Of a stretch of 58,483 nucleotides of DNA, positions 23,076 through 54,768 are shown one piece after another. Source of the stretch: Patescibacteria group bacterium (GTDB taxonomy: Bacteria; Patescibacteriota; Patescibacteriia; SG8-24); assembly GCA_028714475.1 (NCBI GenBank), contig JAQTNC010000008.1, forward strand, positions 1 through 58,483, in the 5' to 3' direction. A program made the translations under genes and the position numbers. Below the pieces are notes generated by a model, which saw only the letters and a list, made by a program, of their open reading frames with translations, searched no databases and had not been told where the DNA came from. The stretch's first letter is position 1. Each line of letters opens with the position of its first letter.

Positions 23076-23618
23076 TTACGCCTTACCCACGATACTTGTC
23101 AACTGTCCGCCTTGGCGCACGACCGGCTGTTCAACCTTGACCGGCATTTCGGCGTTCAAAGTGGTGATGAACTGCTGGATAATCTGGGTGGCCCGGTCGC
23201 CGTGCCGCTTTTCTCGGCCGCGGAGGATGATCTCCACCTTGACCTTGTCGCCGTTGTCCAGGAACTTCTTGGCCTGGCCGCGGCGCGTTTCCAAATCATG
23301 CTCGCCGATGCGGACCGACAGGCGCACGCCCTTCACCTCGACGGTCTTGGCCTTGGCCTTCTGCTTCTGGATCTCCTTGTTCCGCTCGAACTTGTACTTG
23401 CCGAAGTCGATGATCTTGGCGATGGGCGGGTCGGTGTTCGTCTGGATGACGACCAGGTCCTGCTCGCGCTCGCGCGCCTTCTGCAGGGCCTCGCCTGTCG
23501 ACATGATGCCCAAATGCTCGCCTTCGTCGGTGATGACGCGGAGCTGGGGAAAGCGGATCTGCTCGTTGATGATGTAGACGACGGCGGGTGTCTTCGGCCG
23601 GAAGCGGCGACGGGAAAT
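23076..23618 (-). CDS. infC: translation initiation factor IF-3
   Basis: INEQIRFPQLRVITDEGEHLGIMSTGEALQKAREREQDLV... The start is uncertain: ATT at 23618 fits the IF-3 N-terminal length, TTG at 23624 is an alternative, and the ORF-track ATG at 23765 lies upstream of a promoter-like site. Confidence 0.88.
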   Translation of the reverse strand: MSRRRFRPKTPAVVYIINEQIRFPQLRVITDEGEHLGIMSTGEALQKAREREQDLVVIQTNTDPPIAKIIDFGKYKFERNKEIQKQKAKAKTVEVKGVRLSVRIGEHDLETRRGQAKKFLDNGDKVKVEIILRGREKRHGDRATQIIQQFITTLNAEMPVKVEQPVVRQGGQLTSIVGKA

Positions 23619-23654
23619 TCGCAAGGCTTTGTCGGTTAGAGGAGTTACTAGGCT

Positions 23655-23683
23655 AGGATAAGCTTTTTTCAGGATGTTGTCAA
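23655..23683 (-). promoter_or_regulatory. sigma70-type promoter candidate for infC-rpmI-rplT
   Basis: Minus strand TTGACA, 17-bp spacer, TATCCT in an AT-rich segment. Confidence 0.4.
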
Positions 23684-23780
23684 CTAAAGTGAATCCAACC
23701 TTACCCTGTCGGCCATTTGACAGAAACACGAAAATATGATACTTGTTTTGGCAAACAAAGGGCAAGAAAGGAGTTTGACG

Positions 23781-24137
23781 ATGGGGCGGTTTTATCCTTC
23801 TGCATTAAGAGGCTCAGCGAGGTCCGGTACGGTTTCTAATCCCAAAAACGACACGGTGATGGTCGACGGACGAGTCGTCCACTACACCGTTTGGCCGGAC
23901 CAGGTTGACTGTATCATGAGCATCGACGTGCCGGGCAAACATGTTGGGGATGCCCAGCCGCTGTCCAGAGATGTCGTCTTCTACGATGTCGAACCGGTGC
24001 CCGAAAACGAGCAGGCGTCCGTAATCGATGCCATCAGAGCTCACGAGACGGAAAAGCTTAGTCAAACACCTGCGGCTAAAGCGGTGGTCAAGCACGCCGC
24101 CCTCGATCGATGCCGTTTTGGATTCTGGAAACATTAG
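23781..24137 (+). CDS. hypothetical protein
   Basis: Frame of 23736..24137 trimmed to ATG 23781, preceded by AAAGGAG; no recognisable family. Confidence 0.6.
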   Translation: MGRFYPSALRGSARSGTVSNPKNDTVMVDGRVVHYTVWPDQVDCIMSIDVPGKHVGDAQPLSRDVVFYDVEPVPENEQASVIDAIRAHETEKLSQTPAAKAVVKHAALDRCRFGFWKH

Positions 24138-24161
24138 GCAACGACCAACATCTTCGCGCCT

Positions 24162-24202
24162 GACCGGCCCAGCACCCTTGCTTGGCCGGTCGCGTGTTTT
24201 TT
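24162..24202 (+). terminator. intrinsic terminator candidate
   Basis: GACCGGCC-(14 nt)-GGCCGGTC then GCGTGTTTTTT. Confidence 0.5.
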
Positions 24203-24242
24203 AAGCCCACTTTATGCCTTGATACACGACCTGCCTTGAGCC

Positions 24243-24271
24243 TTTACAAATACGGCAAAGGTGGTTAATGT
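24243..24271 (+). promoter_or_regulatory. weak sigma70-type promoter candidate
   Basis: TTTACA, 17-bp spacer, TAATGT. Confidence 0.3.
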
Positions 24272-24365
24272 TAGCTCCTTCCCAGACTGTTTATGGGAGG
24301 CTTGCCAGGGCATAAGGCCAGCAAGAATGTAGTTGTTTCCCAACCGATTTTCTCCGGAGGTATCA

Positions 24366-24641
24366 ATGGACTCACAGCGACCCATTCCGCGCCCCATAAC
24401 CTGTCTCGACGGCGGCGAAGACGCGACGGGCGAAGACTTCTTCGGCCAATCTGGCGGACAAGCTGGTCCCCCCTTTGGCCAAGCGAGCGCGACTCGACGG
24501 CACCGTGACGGCAGTTACGACCCGCCCGAGCATGACCGCTCCGGGCGCTGCAACGGCCCCACCTATCTCCTGTTGGGTTTAGTCGGCCTCATCGGCGCGC
24601 TCCTCGGCAGTTTGGCTGCCTTCAGCGTCATGACGCCGTAG
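24366..24641 (+). CDS. small tail-anchored membrane protein, function unknown
   Basis: ATG 24366 preceded by GGAGG; C-terminal TM YLLLGLVGLIGALLGSLAAFSVM. Confidence 0.5.
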   Translation: MDSQRPIPRPITCLDGGEDATGEDFFGQSGGQAGPPFGQASATRRHRDGSYDPPEHDRSGRCNGPTYLLLGLVGLIGALLGSLAAFSVMTP

Positions 24642-24883
24642 ATCCACAAGGTGCGCGACGTCGCCGCCTAAGCCGCGGCGCAACCTCGGCGGTGTACCAG
24701 AAGTACGAGCCACCGCCCCACCTCCGCGCTGCCAGATCAGCAGCCTGAACGGCTGCGCCAAGCTGATGGCATCGAAGAGTAACCGTCGCTGGACGGCCCC
24801 TTCCCGCTTCGAACGCGTCCCGCCAGGGTTCAACTCCTGGCGGGCGCTGTTTGTTTAGCCGATTTTTCCTACGTCCGTCCCTA

Positions 24884-24912
24884 TTGATTATTTTTCTCGC
24901 CTATCATATATT
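24884..24912 (+). promoter_or_regulatory. sigma70-type promoter candidate for the tRNA-like/GIY-YIG/tRNA-Asp transcript
   Basis: TTGATT, 17-bp spacer, TATATT. Confidence 0.35.
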
Positions 24913-25000
24913 GTCTCTTGTCGCGGGCTGACGGCATCTCGGATGAAGCGCCTCCATTGAGGCAAGAAGCCGAGACCGTCGCTCAAAAATTCAGCATTGG

Positions 25001-25066
25001 CGTGGGTCCGTGGTGTAGCCCGGTTAACACGGGCCGCACTGCTGCGGCCAGACCGAGGGTTCGAAT
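25001..25066 (+). pseudogene. truncated tRNA-Asp-like element, copy 1 (no anticodon, no 3' acceptor strand)
   Basis: 66 nt identical to 25311-25376. tRNA-Asp positions 1-26 and variable/T-stem/T-loop are retained, and the anticodon arm is replaced by GGCCGCA-CTGC-TGCGGCC. Confidence 0.8.
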
Positions 25067-25070
25067 CCAT

Positions 25071-25328
25071 ATGGTCACCGTCCTATACATCCTAAAAAAT
25101 ACAAAAGGCAGCTATTACGTCGGGGTCACCGAGGACATCCAGCGCAGGCTGTCCGAGCATAATGTTGGGAAAAGTCTTGCCACGAGAGGAAGAGGACCGT
25201 GGGACCTGGTCTACACGGAAACCTTCCCCTCGCCGCAAGAAGCGAAGAGGCGGGAATATCAGATTAAGCAAAAGAAACGGAAGTCGTATATCGAGTGGTT
25301 GCTGAAGAATCGTGGGTCCGTGGTGTAG
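25071..25328 (+). CDS. small stand-alone GIY-YIG nuclease family protein
   Basis: Frame of 24918..25328 trimmed to ATG 25071. LYILKNTKGSYYVGVTEDIQRRLSEHN...REYQIKQ. The stop codon lies inside repeat copy 2. Confidence 0.85.
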   Translation: MVTVLYILKNTKGSYYVGVTEDIQRRLSEHNVGKSLATRGRGPWDLVYTETFPSPQEAKRREYQIKQKKRKSYIEWLLKNRGSVV

Positions 25329-25376
25329 CCCGGTTAACACGGGCCGCACTGCTGCGGCCAGACCGAGGGTTCGAAT
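25311..25376 (+). pseudogene. truncated tRNA-Asp-like element, copy 2
   Basis: Identical to 25001-25066; diverges after GGTTCGAAT. Confidence 0.8.
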
Positions 25377-25404
25377 GCACGACACGATTCGCTAAGCATG
25401 GCGT

Positions 25405-25482
25405 GGGTCCGTGGTGTAGCCCGGTTAACACGTCTCCCTGTCACGGAGAAGACCGAGGGTTCGAATCCCTTCGGACCCGCCA
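25405..25482 (+). tRNA. tRNA-Asp (anticodon GTC), CCA encoded
   Basis: Manual cloverleaf: acceptor GGGTCCG/CGGACCC, D stem GTGT/ACAC, anticodon arm TCTCC-CTGTCAC-GGAGA, T arm GAGGG-TTCGAAT-CCCTT. Confidence 0.9.
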
Positions 25483-25517
25483 CGTAAAAAACCCAGCTTG
25501 CTGGGTTTTTTACGTGG
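25480..25517 (+). terminator. palindromic terminator hairpin after tRNA-Asp
   Basis: CCACGTAAAAAACCCAGC-TT-GCTGGGTTTTTTACGTGG. Confidence 0.7.
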
Positions 25518-25713
25518 CGCCCCGTGATGAACTGCGAAGCGGTTCATTTTACGGGGCTTTCCCTAAACGAACGCTGGGTTTCACGTGGCGCGGCCACTTA
25601 ATTTTGATACGGCTTGCCCGGTGTTTTTACGTGGCGTCCCGTGTGGCTCGCCGCGCGAGCCGCTTTACGGGACATTCCTTGGACGAACGCCGGTGTTCAC
25701 GTGGCGCAACCAC
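25507..25713 (+). repeat. two 90-nt degenerate direct repeats (25507-25596 and 25624-25713)
   Basis: Shared frame TTTTTACGTGGCGYCCCGTG-[variable hairpin]-TTTACGGGRC...ACGAACGCYGG..TTCACGTGGCGC..CCAC. Confidence 0.7.
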
Positions 25714-25836
25714 GAGACGAAAGGATTCGAACCCATACCCGCTGCCAATCTTGACTTTTTCCTTGATTTATGCTATGTTTAGCCTGTAATCTCGCTTAAT
25801 TACAAACTGACTTTGAAAGGCTAAGGTCCAAGAAAT

Positions 25837-26517
25837 ATGCCAACCAGACCACCTGCCGCAGAACAACCTCCTGTCATTTCCGACTCCGACATAGAGGGGG
25901 CTTTTGAGGCAATCACCGAGCAGCCACCCGCAAGCGGCGTCCAACAGGCAACCGAAGCCAGGCCAGACGCGCCCGAAATCAAGCAGGCCCGCGTCGGCGA
26001 GGTCGCGAACCGATTCGCTGGTGAAGCCGTTGGCCTGCTCAAGGCCGATAAGGGAGAAGGCAAACAGGGGCTGGCAACGCTGAAGGATCGCTTCCTACAA
26101 GAGGCCCGTCAAACCGTTCCGGACATAACGAACGGGGAGGCCATGGATAGTCTCCGGGCGTACCTCAAAAGCCAGCACGACGCGCACTTCTCCCTCGATG
26201 AAACGTTGGCTGGCGACATCGACGCATTTGCGCGTTCGTTAGAATTTGAGGCCAAGGTTGAATCGAAATCCGCCAAGGCCTTCCTGACGATGTTGAACAG
26301 CGACAGCTACGAGACGATGGAAGACGCCATGAACGGTCTGGATGAATACAAGAGGCAGGCAACGGCAGCTGACATGGGTGCCGACGAAATGAACAGCGAA
26401 TTCAACGCCCTCTACCAGATGGCGCAAAGGCATTTCGGCGGCGAAAGCCGGGGTGAGAAGGGGGCGTTGGAAGCTTCAGACGAAGACATTGAAGGTGCCC
26501 TCAATCAACTCGGATAA
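25837..26517 (+). CDS. acidic hypothetical protein
   Basis: 226 aa, D/E-rich; related terminal motifs SDSDIEGAFEAI (N-terminus) and SDEDIEGALNQL (C-terminus). Confidence 0.65.
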   Translation: MPTRPPAAEQPPVISDSDIEGAFEAITEQPPASGVQQATEARPDAPEIKQARVGEVANRFAGEAVGLLKADKGEGKQGLATLKDRFLQEARQTVPDITNGEAMDSLRAYLKSQHDAHFSLDETLAGDIDAFARSLEFEAKVESKSAKAFLTMLNSDSYETMEDAMNGLDEYKRQATAADMGADEMNSEFNALYQMAQRHFGGESRGEKGALEASDEDIEGALNQLG

Positions 26518-26615
26518 ACGTCGATACAAGCAACGCCAATGACGAATAAGCGGCCTGCCTCATGGCGGGTCGTTTTGAATTCGTCATAACTAATAAGAGC
26601 CCGCGCTTGGCAGGC

Positions 26616-27032
26616 TCAAAAAGGAATCCGGGCGCCGTGCGCGTCGCGGATTCGGGCGCGGGTTTCCTCGACCGAGAGGGCCCGGGCCGAATCGAGAACG
26701 AGCGGCGTGACGCGACCCTCGGCGCTGACTTCGAAAATTGGACAGCCGCGACTGGCCAGGAAATCCGCCTCGGCACAAACTCCCGCCCCGAACTTCCCGT
26801 CGCGGAAAGGGAGAAAAACGCCGGCGCTGCAGGGGGGCAACATCTCTTGCAAGAAATACGTCATGCCGTTCCCCGTCTCTCGCCGATAGCGCTGGCAGGC
26901 CTCCTGATGCTCGGGCTGGTTCGGATTCAGGACTTCCCAATCCGGGAAGGCGGCCTCGATGGCCTCGACCAAGGACCTTTCCAACTCCGTGTCGTAGGTG
27001 TTGATGGGGTGACCAAAATAGATCTTCGACAT
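26616..27032 (-). CDS. hypothetical protein, possibly nucleoside 2-deoxyribosyltransferase-like fold (weak)
   Basis: MSKIYFGHPINTYD... and GVCAEADFLASRGCPIF give only pattern-level similarity. Confidence 0.6.
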   Translation of the reverse strand: MSKIYFGHPINTYDTELERSLVEAIEAAFPDWEVLNPNQPEHQEACQRYRRETGNGMTYFLQEMLPPCSAGVFLPFRDGKFGAGVCAEADFLASRGCPIFEVSAEGRVTPLVLDSARALSVEETRARIRDAHGARIPF

Positions 27033-27095
27033 CAGCTGGCCTTTCGCGAAAGGACGTGATGACGGTATGTTATCGCAACGACTCGCGAAGTCAAG

Positions 27096-27119
27096 AAAAG
27101 GCCCTTTTCCGGGCCTTTT
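27096..27119 (-). terminator. terminator hairpin candidate downstream of ppsA
   Basis: AAAAGGCCC-TTTTCC-GGGCCTTTT. Confidence 0.5.
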
Positions 27120-27129
27120 CTGAAATCAA

Positions 27130-29616
27130 TTATTTCTTGCCTTTCGCCGCGGCGGCCTTTCCGCCCCTTTGCCTCGCGAGCTTCGCTTCCGTCTCAGCGA
27201 TAGCGATCGAGGTCTTGATGACCGAGTCGGGGTTGAGTGACATGCTGTCTATCCCCTCCTCCACCAGGAACTGGGCGAACTCGGGATAATCCGACGGCGC
27301 CTGGCCGCAGATGCCGACCTTCACGTGTTTCTTCTTGGCGACGCGGATGAGATGCCGGATGGATTCGTAAATGGCGTCGTTGCGCTCGTTGTAGAGATGG
27401 CTCACGTATGACGAATCGCGGTCAACGCCGAGCGTGAGCTGGGTTAAATCATTCGAACCGATGCTGAAGCCGTCGAAGATGTCGGCGAACTGGTCGGCGA
27501 GGATGACGTTCGACGGGATTTCCGCCATGACGTACACCTTGAGGCCGTCCTTGCCGCGGACCAAACCCGCCTCGGCCATGGCCTTGAGCACGTCCTTCCC
27601 TTCCTGCGGCGTGCGGCAAAACGGAATCATCACGACCAGATTCTTGAGCCCCATCTCCTCGCGCACCTTGCGGATGGCGCGGCACTCGAGCAGAAAGGCT
27701 TCCTTGTATTTCGGGTCGTAGTAACGCGATGCGCCGCGCCAGCCGATCATCGGGTTCGATTCGACCGGTTCGTAGGCCTTGCCGCCGATGAGGTTCGCAT
27801 ACTCGTTCGTCTTGAAGTCCGAGAAGCGCAGGATGACCTCCTTGGGTGAGAACGCCGCGGCGAGCCGGCCGACGCCTTCCGCGAGACGATCCACGAAAAA
27901 TTTGGTCTTGTCCGTGTAGCCGATGGTCAGGTCATCAATCGCTTCCTTGACGTGCAGATCCGGCAGACGGTCGTAATTGAGCAGCGCGAGCGGGTGAATC
28001 TTGATGAAGTTGGTGAAGATGAACTCGGCGCGCGCGAGGCCCACGCCGGCATTCGGCAGGAAGGAGTGGTCGAAGGCCATCTCCGGCTCGGCGATGTTCA
28101 GCATGACCGCCGTCTTCGGCGTCTTGAAGTCATCGAGCTTGGTGCGCTTGACTTCGAACGGGATGAGGCCGGCGTAAACCTTGCCTTCCTCGCCCTCGGC
28201 GCAGGAGACCGTCACTTCCATGCCGTCCTTGAGCTTCTCCATCGCCTCCCTCGTGCCGACGACCGCCGGCGTGCCCATTTCGCGAGAGACAATGGCCGCG
28301 TGACAGGTTCGGCCGCCGCTGTTGGTCACGATGGCCGCGGCCTTCTTCATGATCGGCACCCAATCCGGGTCGGTCATCTCGGCGACCAGCACCTCGCCGG
28401 CCTTGAACCGCGGCATGTCCGCGATGTCGCGGATAACGCGGACGCGGCCGGAGCCGATGCGCGTTCCGACCGACAGCCCGGTCACGAGCACTTCCGCCTT
28501 TTTCGACTTGATGACGTATTCCTCGAGCACGTGGCGATCCCGGCCAGCCTGAACCGTTTCCGGACGCGCCTGCACGATGAACAGCTGTCCCGTGACGCCA
28601 TCCTTGGCCCACTCGATGTCCATCGGCTCCAAATGACCGACGAGCTTGGAATAGTATTCCTCGATGGCCACGCCCCATTTTGCCAACTGGAGGACCTCAT
28701 CATCGTTCAAGCACGGCTGTTGGCGCTCGTCGGCGGGCACCGGCACGGAATGAATCGGCGCGCCGGACTCTAGGCTGTAGACGATCTTCGTCTCCTTGGA
28801 ACCGATGGTGCGCCCGATGATGGGCCGAAAACCCTGCTTGAGTGTCGGCTTGAAGACGTAATACTGGTCCGGATTGACCTTGCCCTGCACGACGCTTTCG
28901 CCGAGGCCATAGGCGCCGTTGATCAAGACCGCGTTCTCGAAACCGCTCTCGGTGTCGATCGAGAACATCACGCCGGCGCAGGCGAGATCGGAACGCACCA
29001 TCTTCTGCACGCCGACCGAGAGCGCGACCTTGAGGTGGTCAAAACCCTTCTCGACGCGGTAGGCAATGGCGCGGTTGGTGAAAAGCGAGGCGATGCAGCG
29101 CTTGACCGCGTCCAGGAGCGCGAATTCGCCCTTGATGTTGAGATAAGTGTCCTGCTGGCCGGCGAACGACGCGCCCGGCAAATCCTCGGCCGTGGCGGAG
29201 GAACGCACGGCGACCGCCGGTTCCTTGGTGCCGATGCGCTCGCCCAGCTGGCGGTATGACTCCGTGATGGACGCCCGAACGTCTTCCGGCAATTCGGCGG
29301 CGAGGATGGCCTGGCGCACGCGTCCGCCGGCGTTCGCGAGAGCATCAACGTCCCGGGTGTCGAGGCCGCGCAGCGCGTCAGCAATGACCTGCCGGAGCCC
29401 GGTGGCGTCCATGAATCTCCAATAGGCGTCGGCCGTCACGGCGAAACCGTCCGGCACCGGGATGCCGCGCTTGCCGAGGTTGCGGAACATCTCGCCGAGA
29501 CTGGCGTTCTTGCCGCCGACCGAAGCGACATCGGTCATGTTGACGACGGAAAAATCCTTGACGTAAACGGGGGCGACGACATTCCGCTGGGGCTTGTTGA
29601 TCTTGGTTTTGGCCAT
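27130..29616 (-). CDS. ppsA: phosphoenolpyruvate synthase (pyruvate, water dikinase)
   Basis: 828 aa; VASVGGKNASLGEM N-terminus; mobile-His domain GGRTCHAAIVSREMGTPAVVG; PEP-utilising C-terminal domain. Confidence 0.95.
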   Translation of the reverse strand: MAKTKINKPQRNVVAPVYVKDFSVVNMTDVASVGGKNASLGEMFRNLGKRGIPVPDGFAVTADAYWRFMDATGLRQVIADALRGLDTRDVDALANAGGRVRQAILAAELPEDVRASITESYRQLGERIGTKEPAVAVRSSATAEDLPGASFAGQQDTYLNIKGEFALLDAVKRCIASLFTNRAIAYRVEKGFDHLKVALSVGVQKMVRSDLACAGVMFSIDTESGFENAVLINGAYGLGESVVQGKVNPDQYYVFKPTLKQGFRPIIGRTIGSKETKIVYSLESGAPIHSVPVPADERQQPCLNDDEVLQLAKWGVAIEEYYSKLVGHLEPMDIEWAKDGVTGQLFIVQARPETVQAGRDRHVLEEYVIKSKKAEVLVTGLSVGTRIGSGRVRVIRDIADMPRFKAGEVLVAEMTDPDWVPIMKKAAAIVTNSGGRTCHAAIVSREMGTPAVVGTREAMEKLKDGMEVTVSCAEGEEGKVYAGLIPFEVKRTKLDDFKTPKTAVMLNIAEPEMAFDHSFLPNAGVGLARAEFIFTNFIKIHPLALLNYDRLPDLHVKEAIDDLTIGYTDKTKFFVDRLAEGVGRLAAAFSPKEVILRFSDFKTNEYANLIGGKAYEPVESNPMIGWRGASRYYDPKYKEAFLLECRAIRKVREEMGLKNLVVMIPFCRTPQEGKDVLKAMAEAGLVRGKDGLKVYVMAEIPSNVILADQFADIFDGFSIGSNDLTQLTLGVDRDSSYVSHLYNERNDAIYESIRHLIRVAKKKHVKVGICGQAPSDYPEFAQFLVEEGIDSMSLNPDSVIKTSIAIAETEAKLARQRGGKAAAAKGKK

Positions 29617-54480: not shown

Positions 54481-54596
54481 CTGGTGGCCGCAGAAGGGTG
54501 AATCGCGAACCGGTGAGCGATTCACGGGCGGCGTAGGCCGCCCGGGGTTCAGCGAGCAATTCAGATTCTTGCGAGCTGAACCGAACCTTCGACCTC
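54481..54596 (-). pseudogene. tRNA-Val 3'-half-like element with three hairpin insertions in the T loop
   Basis: Minus strand GAGGTCGAAGGTTCG-[35+22+26 nt hairpins]-CCCTTCTGCGGCCACCA, preceded by AAATGGTGCGGGG. Confidence 0.7.
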
Positions 54597-54628
54597 CCCG
54601 CACCATTTGTTCATCTGTTTCAATTCAC

Positions 54629-54705
54629 TGGTGGGCGCAGAAGGATTCGAACCTTCGACCTCTGTCGTGTGAGGACAGCGCTCTAACCAGCTGAGCTATG
54701 CGCCC
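54629..54705 (-). tRNA. tRNA-Val (anticodon CAC), CCA encoded
   Basis: Manual cloverleaf: GGGCGCA/TGCGCCC acceptor, GCTC/GAGC D stem, CTGTC-CTCACAC-GACAG anticodon arm, GAAGG-TTCGAAT-CCTTC T arm. Confidence 0.9.
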
Positions 54706-54740
54706 ATTGCGCCCACCAGTGAATTGGGAAATGGTGCGGG

Positions 54741-54768
54741 GCGCTCTAACCAGCTGAGCTATGCGCCC
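54741..54768 (-). pseudogene. tRNA-Val 5'-half copy (acceptor 5' strand plus D arm)
   Basis: GGGCGCATAGCTCAGCTGGTTAGAGCGC is identical to the first 28 nt of the real tRNA and is followed by CCCCGCACCATTT. Confidence 0.75.

Follow-up and report, generated by a model that had tools for sequence, protein, structure and literature searches.

A GIY-YIG mini-nuclease gene and hairpin-bearing partial tRNA-Asp copies as a putative selfish cassette in a Patescibacteria tRNA transcription unit

Why would a gene for a nuclease of 85 amino acids (aa) lie between a promoter and the only tRNA-Asp gene of a bacterium, flanked on both sides by partial copies of that same transfer RNA (tRNA) gene? This question is raised by contig C8 (JAQTNC010000008.1), a stretch of 58,483 nucleotides (nt), hereafter the window, from a Patescibacteria group bacterium (assembly GCA_028714475.1; the source genome, G000). 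A first-pass annotation, made from the letters of the window, had described a GIY-YIG gene bracketed by tRNA-like direct repeats and had offered two readings, i.e., the insertion-type footprint of a small nuclease cassette tied to a duplicated tRNA-like sequence, or tRNA-like punctuation of an mRNA. The former is supported, as the repeat and the GIY-YIG gene occur together in relatives. The locus is best read, with moderate confidence, as a selfish cassette of a mini-nuclease gene and a hairpin that has lodged in the tRNA-Asp transcription unit and rides on the tRNA promoter.

The cassette is composed of pieces of the tRNA gene itself. The two 66-nt direct repeats (25001-25066 and 25311-25376) are 100% identical, as had been reported, and when extended to 69 nt they differ in one base (99%). 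Each contains the last 3 nt of the leader, tRNA-Asp nt 1-28 with a 100% match to the gene (nt 1-26 in the first-pass annotation), an 18-nt hairpin, GGCCGCA-CTGC-TGCGGCC, in place of the 17-nt anticodon arm, and nt 44-60, i.e., the variable loop, the T-stem 5′ strand and the T-loop. Both lack the 3′ strands of the T-stem and of the acceptor stem. On the forward strand, which carries all directional features of the cassette, the first of these mimics spans 25004-25068 (two nt beyond nt 60), with its hairpin at 25032-25049, and the second, which is the same through the T-loop, spans 25314-25376, with its hairpin at 25342-25359. Neither mimic scores as a tRNA: Infernal finds no match to the Rfam tRNA model (RF00005) at E≤1 and ARAGORN calls none, while the true tRNA-Asp(GTC), placed by ARAGORN at 25405-25482, is the only sequence scored by the model (25405-25479, 67 bits). 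A search against all Rfam families (E≤1, positions 23500-27500) gave no match for the mimic. With both 3′ strands missing and the covariance model failing, processing of the RNase P or RNase Z type at the copies is unlikely, and the reading as mRNA punctuation is not supported. The folding energies of the mimics are ordinary (z -1.1 to -1.7), and the hairpin is the only stable part of the centroid structure. The 66-mer has no further copy in the source genome (1.4 Mb, 43 contigs).

The nuclease gene is interlocked with both copies, as had been noted before, and it is the sole open reading frame (ORF) within the 0.3-kb insert. The ORF (25071-25328) begins with the ATG at 25071, 4 nt past copy 1, and ends with the TAG at 25326-25328, inside copy 2. 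The latter encodes the last five ORF codons and the stop ('GGG TCC GTG GTG TAG'), with the TAG being part of 'GTGTAG' in the D-arm, so that the 5′ end of the tRNA provides the C-terminus 'GSVV' as well as the stop. Integration of a larger element, with duplication of an integrase attachment (att) site, was considered as a source of the repeats and rejected: the only ORF is the nuclease, the part of the tRNA that is duplicated is the 5′ part, and the repeat is interrupted by a hairpin. Integrase-borne islands and prophages measure about 9-23 kb, insert by integration and have a simple direct repeat at both ends (10.1101/2022.07.05.498093). In contrast, the insert described here is about 0.3 kb long, lacks an integrase, duplicates the 5′ part and exchanges the anticodon arm for a hairpin.

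Transcription of the whole arrangement appears to depend on one promoter. The promoter-like site proposed earlier at 24884-24912 was found again (TTGATT-17-TATATT, forward strand); it is the only such box 5′ of cassette and tRNA, and no other was detected between it and tRNA-Asp, including the 28-nt spacer (25377-25404) that precedes the tRNA. This spacer ends in a duplicated leader, as the leader segment AGCATTGGCGT (24993-25003) recurs minus one T at 25395-25404, directly 5′ of the true tRNA. Promoter-like site, mimic, ORF, mimic and tRNA form one predicted transcription unit. The source genome has a single tRNA-Asp(GTC) gene (ARAGORN), and with the cassette lying between it and the promoter, this essential tRNA can be reached only by transcription through the nuclease gene. 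At the other end, the strong terminator that had been described as closing the unit is real as a palindrome (25478-25519, 20-nt arms, overlapping the tRNA 3′ end), but it belongs to a repeat module that recurs at numerous sites of the genome and is not a specific bracket of the cassette.

The truncation of the mimic after the T-loop leaves GAGGG, the T-stem 5′ strand (25055-25059), unpaired and 11 nt upstream of the ATG. In the relatives G012, G016, G004, G003, L031 and L033 the same motif lies 5-11 nt 5′ of the ATG. GAGGG is likely to act as the ribosome-binding (Shine–Dalgarno) site of the nuclease gene, a feature that the first-pass annotation had missed. Such an arrangement could equally be thought to serve the host, with the mimic as an RNA leader for ribosome binding, stability or processing that couples a housekeeping nuclease of the UPF0213 type to tRNA-Asp transcription. 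The single unit without an internal promoter, the position of GAGGG 5′ of the ATG in relatives and the strong purifying selection on ORF and hairpin (see below) speak for this explanation. Nevertheless, it is rated as improbable, in view of the distribution of the family discussed further on.

The protein itself is a minimal GIY-YIG enzyme. It matches the Pfam GIY-YIG family PF01541 with 65.3 bits (cut-off 22.6, E 6e-18), while no NCBIfam family matches it. The closest solved relatives are the UPF0213 proteins BH0048 (PDB 1zg2; protein search 3e-15, profile search 8e-20) and EF2693 (PDB 1ywl), followed by Slx1 (profile E about 1e-5). The AlphaFold model (predicted local distance difference test score, pLDDT, 88.9) consists of a bare GIY-YIG fold, having the three-stranded sheet and flanking helices that define it, and a basic C-terminal helix; the predicted strands (E) and helices (H) are E3-10, E15-20, H23-32, E44-52, H55-67 and H71-81. 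Foldseek ranks UPF0213 proteins first and second, then Slx1 (template modelling score 0.58-0.63, root-mean-square deviation 2.9 Å) and the UvrC N-domain. Across 20 relatives Y16, R26 and E62 never vary, and Y6 is at least 90% conserved, which means that both tyrosines, the arginine and the metal-binding glutamate of the GIY-YIG active site are present. Neither a second Pfam domain nor, in the AlphaFold model, a DNA-binding extension is found in the chain. The ratio of nonsynonymous to synonymous substitution (dN/dS) is 0.08-0.13 among G000, G012 and G016, with synonymous sites near saturation (proportion of synonymous differences, pS, about 0.65). The ORF is under strong purifying selection, with dN/dS at about 0.1.

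A DNA search for the cassette covering 40 relatives placed it at tRNA-Asp in four other genera of the same family (G012, G016, G004 and G003), and an ORF-less mimic was found in a fifth (G007). In G012 the layout again comprises three copies, at 81% identity, with additional hairpin-bearing partial copies downstream. G016 and G004 have two copies, i.e., a mimic, the ORF and the real tRNA-Asp, with the stop of the ORF inside the real tRNA. G003 shows the mimic and the first part of the ORF at a contig end. A TTGAWA-17-TAYAAT box is present just 5′ of the mimic in G012, G016, G004, G003 and G007. When a family pattern was built to match the mimic and not the real tRNA, it yielded 11 sites in six of the 24 family genomes, which represent 6 of 17 genera; every site adjoins tRNA-Asp, and the reversed control yielded none. 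The co-occurrence of repeat and GIY-YIG gene that the first-pass annotation had asked to be tested is found in relatives; in the source genome the 66-mer is confined to this locus. A repeat-induced assembly artefact, or chance similarity, might be suspected from the metagenome-type assembly in 43 contigs and from G003, of which the contig breaks within the repeat region. It is given practically no weight: the same layout occurs in independent assemblies with diverged sequence, among which the three-copy layout of G012 makes an artefact very unlikely, and 66 nt of identity, a conserved reading frame and a covarying hairpin cannot arise by chance.

Empty sites, a comparison that had likewise been suggested, do exist. 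In many other genera tRNA-Asp has no cassette and occupies the same neighbourhood, close to rplT/infC and/or ppsA; in G001 infC, rplT and ppsA all flank the empty site. At empty sites the promoter lies about 25-35 nt 5′ of tRNA-Asp. This presence/absence polymorphism at tRNA-Asp sites in one neighbourhood is what is expected of homing endonucleases. It raises the possibility of classical free-standing homing in the style of SegB or I-TevI, in which a double-strand cut in a cassette-free tRNA-Asp gene would be repaired by copying the cassette in, the hairpin-plugged copies being immune. Besides the polymorphism, this explanation draws on the GIY-YIG catalytic domain, on the fact that the anticodon arm is exactly the part that is swapped in the copies, and on SegB, which belongs to the GIY-YIG enzymes, is encoded in a tRNA cluster and cleaves the DNA of tRNA genes (PMC2330249; PMC13096335). 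However, the 85-aa protein has one domain and lacks a DNA-binding extension, unlike the known homing GIY-YIG enzymes. Moreover, G000 and G012 keep an empty-site-like leader, an unchanged tRNA-Asp and the terminator, which argues against a short recognition site therein, and occupied and empty genomes do not differ in the anticodon arm of the real gene. With its tRNA-Asp unchanged and empty-site-like, an occupied genome would have its only tRNA-Asp gene cut by such a homing enzyme. Homing by double-strand cleavage is hence unlikely, and less likely than a selfish cassette with a hairpin-directed nuclease.

The hairpin is under selection as well. All 14 stem bases are unchanged in G000, G012, G016 and G003, although synonymous sites of the ORF are near saturation. 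In G004, L031, L033 and G007 the stem shifts by compensatory pairs. Across the alignment 100% of the hairpin cells are paired, and four of the seven pairs have changed on both sides, against zero one-sided changes; none of 500 shuffles matched this covariation, and slid registers are only 34-54% paired. The CCG/CGG core is invariant across relatives. The ORF-less mimic of G007 has a different hairpin, GTCCGAT-GGCC-ATCGGAC. That the hairpin, and not the tRNA part, covaries had escaped the first-pass annotation. In view of this covariation, decay of a tandem tRNA array was rejected as an origin of the copies.

The tRNA part of the mimics follows the resident tRNA instead. Lineage-specific tRNA changes are found in both the gene and the mimic, i.e., C5T and C18T in L031, TTCAAA in G004, GATC in G004 and L031, and GGGTCGG in L033. 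The leaders of G000 and G012 (the latter of 24 nt) are unrelated, yet each genome has duplicated its own. The copies evolve in concert with the tRNA, by ongoing recombination between the copies or by selection for matching.

Association of the nuclease with tRNA genes reaches far beyond this family and beyond tRNA-Asp. A first sample of 25 relative loci, retrieved with peptide patterns in a species-level collection of genomes, spans Patescibacteria, Acidobacteriota, Bacteroidota, Marinimicrobia and others. In 19 of these loci a same-strand tRNA lies at most 90 nt from the nuclease gene, and four of the six exceptions have less than 75 nt of sequence 5′ of the ORF before the contig end. In a second, separate sample, a profile search of 301 Patescibacteria genomes, the family was detected in 212 genomes (about 70%), with up to 15 copies per genome. 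Among the best 29 loci examined, 22 have a same-strand tRNA within 150 nt, and ten different amino-acid types are represented; as a baseline, positions no more than 200 nt from a tRNA make up about 1.6% of G000. Most loci contain partial copies of the adjacent tRNA in which a GC-rich hairpin replaces the anticodon arm or a neighbouring part. Two layouts can be distinguished. In the first, usual in Patescibacteria, a mimic [1-28, hairpin, 44-60] is followed by the ORF and then the tRNA; in its mirror image the tRNA comes first, then the ORF and a mimic [8-27, hairpin, 44-76]. At G239:C1:482730-483287 (L086) mimic and GIY-YIG ORF are tandemly duplicated, 321 nt apart, before tRNA-Pro(tgg).

The nuclease family is also dispensable. 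It was not found in G001 (99% complete), and broken copies occur, as illustrated by L053 and by matches with internal stops. The layout recurs at many tRNA genes in many bacteria and looks selfish. These observations bear directly on the host-serving explanation raised above. Dispensability, the 18 of 24 family genomes without an Asp cassette, the multiple copies per genome at many different tRNA genes, and the broken copies together with the ORF-less relic in G007 all count against a housekeeping role, and the existence of two mirror layouts, which differ in the side of the ORF on which the tRNA lies, is more in keeping with an element than with a regulon.

Which described system does the cassette resemble most? 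Ssn/NTS and SegB come closest. Ssn proteins, which make up family cd10448 and include SsnA of Neisseria meningitidis, are single-domain GIY-YIG enzymes of 94 aa that bind their flanking NTS/SRM hairpin repeat only as single-stranded DNA (ssDNA) and cut a few nt upstream (PMC11893778). With this link to flanking hairpin repeats, the earlier remark that stand-alone GIY-YIG genes of this size are usually annotated as orphans with no known mobility signature needs correction (PMC11893778). The cassette shares with Ssn a single GIY-YIG domain in a chain of about 85-95 aa, the catalytic residues, as compared by means of the published SsnA mutants Y6A, Y17A and E64A (PMC11893778; Y6, Y17 and E64 in SsnA, Y6, Y16 and E62 here), and copies of a short GC-rich hairpin, its core being CCG/CGG, on either side of the gene. 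Unlike in Ssn systems, the hairpin lacks a GTCWY box and sits at the anticodon-arm position inside partial tRNA duplicates; the word tRNA does not occur in the Ssn paper (PMC11893778).

SegB, a free-standing homing endonuclease of the T4/T6 tRNA gene cluster (PMC2330249; PMC13096335), causes recombination-dependent tandem amplification of units made up of tRNA and nuclease gene, through microhomology between tRNA 5′ and segB 3′ sequences; this has been shown for the T6 cluster (PMC13096335). It resembles the cassette in being a GIY-YIG gene among tRNA genes, and its microhomology is similar to the overlap of ORF 3′ end and tRNA 5′ end and to the 310-nt repeat found here. In contrast to the cassette, SegB is a larger phage protein with DNA-binding parts, and hairpin-plugged partial tRNAs have not been described for it; the cassette is chromosomal and resides in bacteria with tiny genomes. 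The extra DNA-binding domain that marks homing enzymes of the SegB and I-TevI type is lacking from the 85-aa protein. The element would thus work like an Ssn/SRM pair and like a free-standing homing gene, yet it lacks defining traits of both.

The UPF0213 proteins BH0048 and EF2693 have the same size and single domain and are the best sequence and fold matches, but their depositors name them hypothetical proteins only, and the literature searches gave no function or tRNA linkage for them. Slx1, the next-best relative in sequence and fold, acts on branched DNA, which is compatible with hairpin recognition; it differs in being eukaryotic, in needing Slx4, in having a RING/zinc domain and in having no link to tRNA genes. 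A paper on tRNA fragments attributes partial tRNAs only to integrated mobile elements or CRISPR spacers. No account of a GIY-YIG cassette that is embedded in a tRNA unit and comes with hairpin-plugged partial tRNAs was found in the literature, in searches that largely left out subscription journals.

The layout and its conservation, the selection that acts on ORF and hairpin, the presence/absence polymorphism and the link to tRNA genes are observed, while the substrate of the nuclease and the route of mobility are inferred. The cassette would have two working parts, the 85-aa GIY-YIG nuclease gene and the conserved hairpin, with its 7-bp stem and 4-nt loop, in the truncated tRNA copies. By analogy with the NTS/SRM of Ssn, the hairpin is most likely the cognate site of the nuclease in single-stranded or extruded DNA. 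Partial duplication of the tRNA would allow the cassette to sit between promoter and tRNA without destroying the gene, the truncated T-arm would free GAGGG for ribosome binding, and the tRNA 5′ end would supply the last codons and the stop. A cut beside the hairpin, inside the non-essential mimic, may provoke recombination with the homologous real tRNA. Such recombination would explain the concerted evolution, the 310-nt tandem duplication, the arrays seen elsewhere and clean loss. For spread to cassette-free genomes, nt 1-28 and 29-76 of the tRNA could serve as homology arms. In relatives with two copies, cleavage by RNase P at the tRNA 5′ end would strip the stop codon from the ORF and leave a non-stop mRNA; in the source cassette the stop lies in a mimic, which is predicted to be unprocessable.

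Several points weigh against a selfish cassette with this mechanism. Firstly, selection at the DNA and at the RNA level is inseparable here, as all pairs are Watson–Crick and the stem is palindromic, and the identity of the copies could reflect selection for RNA function instead of gene conversion driven by the nuclease. Secondly, the hairpin is not specific to tRNA mimics: CCGCA-N4-TGCGG occurs 28 times in the source genome, compared to 3.5 times in shuffled sequence and eight times for the reversed pattern, and often in terminator-like contexts. A scan for generic CCGC...GCGG hairpins was discarded as too unspecific, as it returned 371 matches in this GC-rich genome, 18 of which lie near tRNAs. 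Thirdly, the hairpin does not conform to the published SRM pattern, HGTCWYN(0-2)YYVSBRHN(0-5)WNVSBRGN(0-2)RNCYNB, which has no match on contig C8 and 29 matches genome-wide, compared to 14.6 in shuffles. For want of an SRM-pattern match in it, the cassette is not filed as an Ssn/SRM system. Fourthly, the nearest solved relatives are UPF0213 proteins, which have not been shown to be Ssn. Lastly, a patchy distribution within one family is not by itself proof of horizontal movement.

If the cassette is indeed a selfish element, many short 'hypothetical GIY-YIG' genes and 'pseudo-tRNA' fragments would be the halves of one element, and hairpin nucleases of the Ssn type would gain a genomic niche inside tRNA transcription units. 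It would also mean that a force duplicating, homogenising and rearranging tRNA genes is at work in very small genomes in which most tRNAs are single-copy, and it would provide natural pairs of tiny nucleases and short hairpin sites that are maybe useful as ssDNA tools. More tentatively, and with doubt outweighing confidence, these cassettes may represent a major undescribed class of bacterial mobile elements, characterised by a hairpin-specific ssDNA nuclease, tRNA segments as portable homology arms, a mimic plugged with the recognition hairpin, an essential tRNA transcribed through the nuclease gene, and recombination that would drive duplication, conversion and turnover of tRNA genes across phyla. 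In practice, tRNA finders and annotators will miscall the hairpin-plugged copies, and assemblers break contigs at such repeats.

Further observations were made at related loci. In L033 (2235-2312) the tRNA behind the cassette is of the tRNA-Asp type with anticodon TTC (G34T) and is called tRNA-Glu, which could mean that the anticodon of a duplicated gene has shifted, that the gene is a pseudogene or that the sequence is in error. The source genome holds near-canonical NTS copies, e.g., CGTCATTCCCGCGAAGGCGGGAATCCAG at C3:14710. Two GIY-YIG paralogues, at C40:1790-2330 and C5:51850-52500 (L008 and L009), are without a tRNA and have NTS-like hairpin repeats around them (ACGTCATCC... and CCACCCCCGCGGAAGCGGGGGT).

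The terminator module behind tRNA-Asp and two repeats after it, spaced by about 117 nt (25478-25713 in total), belong to the genome-wide module; part of the cassette query has 26 matches in G000, query positions 465-531 are matched at many sites of G000 and relatives, and the module also lies 3′ of three other tRNA genes, tRNA-Lys(ctt), Ala(cgc) and Ala(tgc). At 25718-25734, 240 nt downstream of tRNA-Asp, there is a fragment that resembles an inverted T-arm, CGAAAGGATTCGAACCC. In the relatives L018, L023-L025 and L027, inserts of about 150-200 nt have a similar inverted T-arm start and a direct copy of the tRNA-Asp 3′ end at their end.

Partial tRNA copies are common in the source genome. On the minus strand of the window (54581-54768), tRNA-Val(CAC) (54629-54705) is nested in a split mimic, with no GIY-YIG gene nearby. 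The upstream part (54729-54768) consists of leader and nt 1-28 followed by CCCCGCACCATTT, while in the downstream part (54581-54608) AAATGGTGCGGGG precedes the variable loop and the beginning of the T-arm. The CCCCGCACCATTT and AAATGGTGCGGGG halves form one long stem, which places the real tRNA-Val in its loop. At C3:65334-65836 (L067) the gene is preceded by four tandem 95-nt units, each opening with nt 1-26 of tRNA-Thr(GGT). In these units a closed hairpin, CCCCGCGGCAACGCGGGG, takes turns with an open left half, CCCCGCATTTTT; the matching right half, AAAAATGCGGGG, is found with nt 44-76 downstream of the gene. Three loci, C4:85690-86010 (L066), C31:6700-6860 (L068) and C4:4850-5000 (L070), share an insert of roughly 100 nt (AGCCGCGGTTGTGCGGCTT...GGTGGCGGCCTTAGCCGC...), which comes after the 'GGTA' of the D-loop in 5′ partial copies of tRNA-Lys(ctt), Ala(cgc) and Pro(tgg). 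It is present three times at the Lys locus and has no Rfam match at E≤0.1. Taken together, these cases hint at one or a few nucleases that may act on several ORF-less mimics in the source genome.

Other tRNA genes show related rearrangements. At C4:5530-5870 on the minus strand (L070 1071-1321), the anticodon loop of a tRNA-Phe(GAA) that ARAGORN missed is split by a group I intron (Rfam 68 bits). The intron contains the hairpin GGCCGCAGCATTGCGGCC, which has the same stem as the Asp mimic, and a GIY-YIG paralogue (C4:5091-5312) lies just downstream. On the minus strand at C17:20330-20402 lies a tRNA-like gene of full length, which has an acceptor stem, both D- and T-arms and CCA and is called 'tRNA-Asp(atc)' by ARAGORN. 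Its anticodon arm is CCCCGC-TATCC-GCGGGG, making it a complete hairpin-plugged tRNA, and it could yield a stable RNA. Finally, tRNA-Thr(cgt) nt 1-42 adjoins tRNA-Gly(ccc) at C17:25870-25911, and tRNA-Gly(ccc) nt 28-74 adjoins tRNA-Thr(cgt) at C30:10846-10892, each with 100% identity, as chimeras across contigs.

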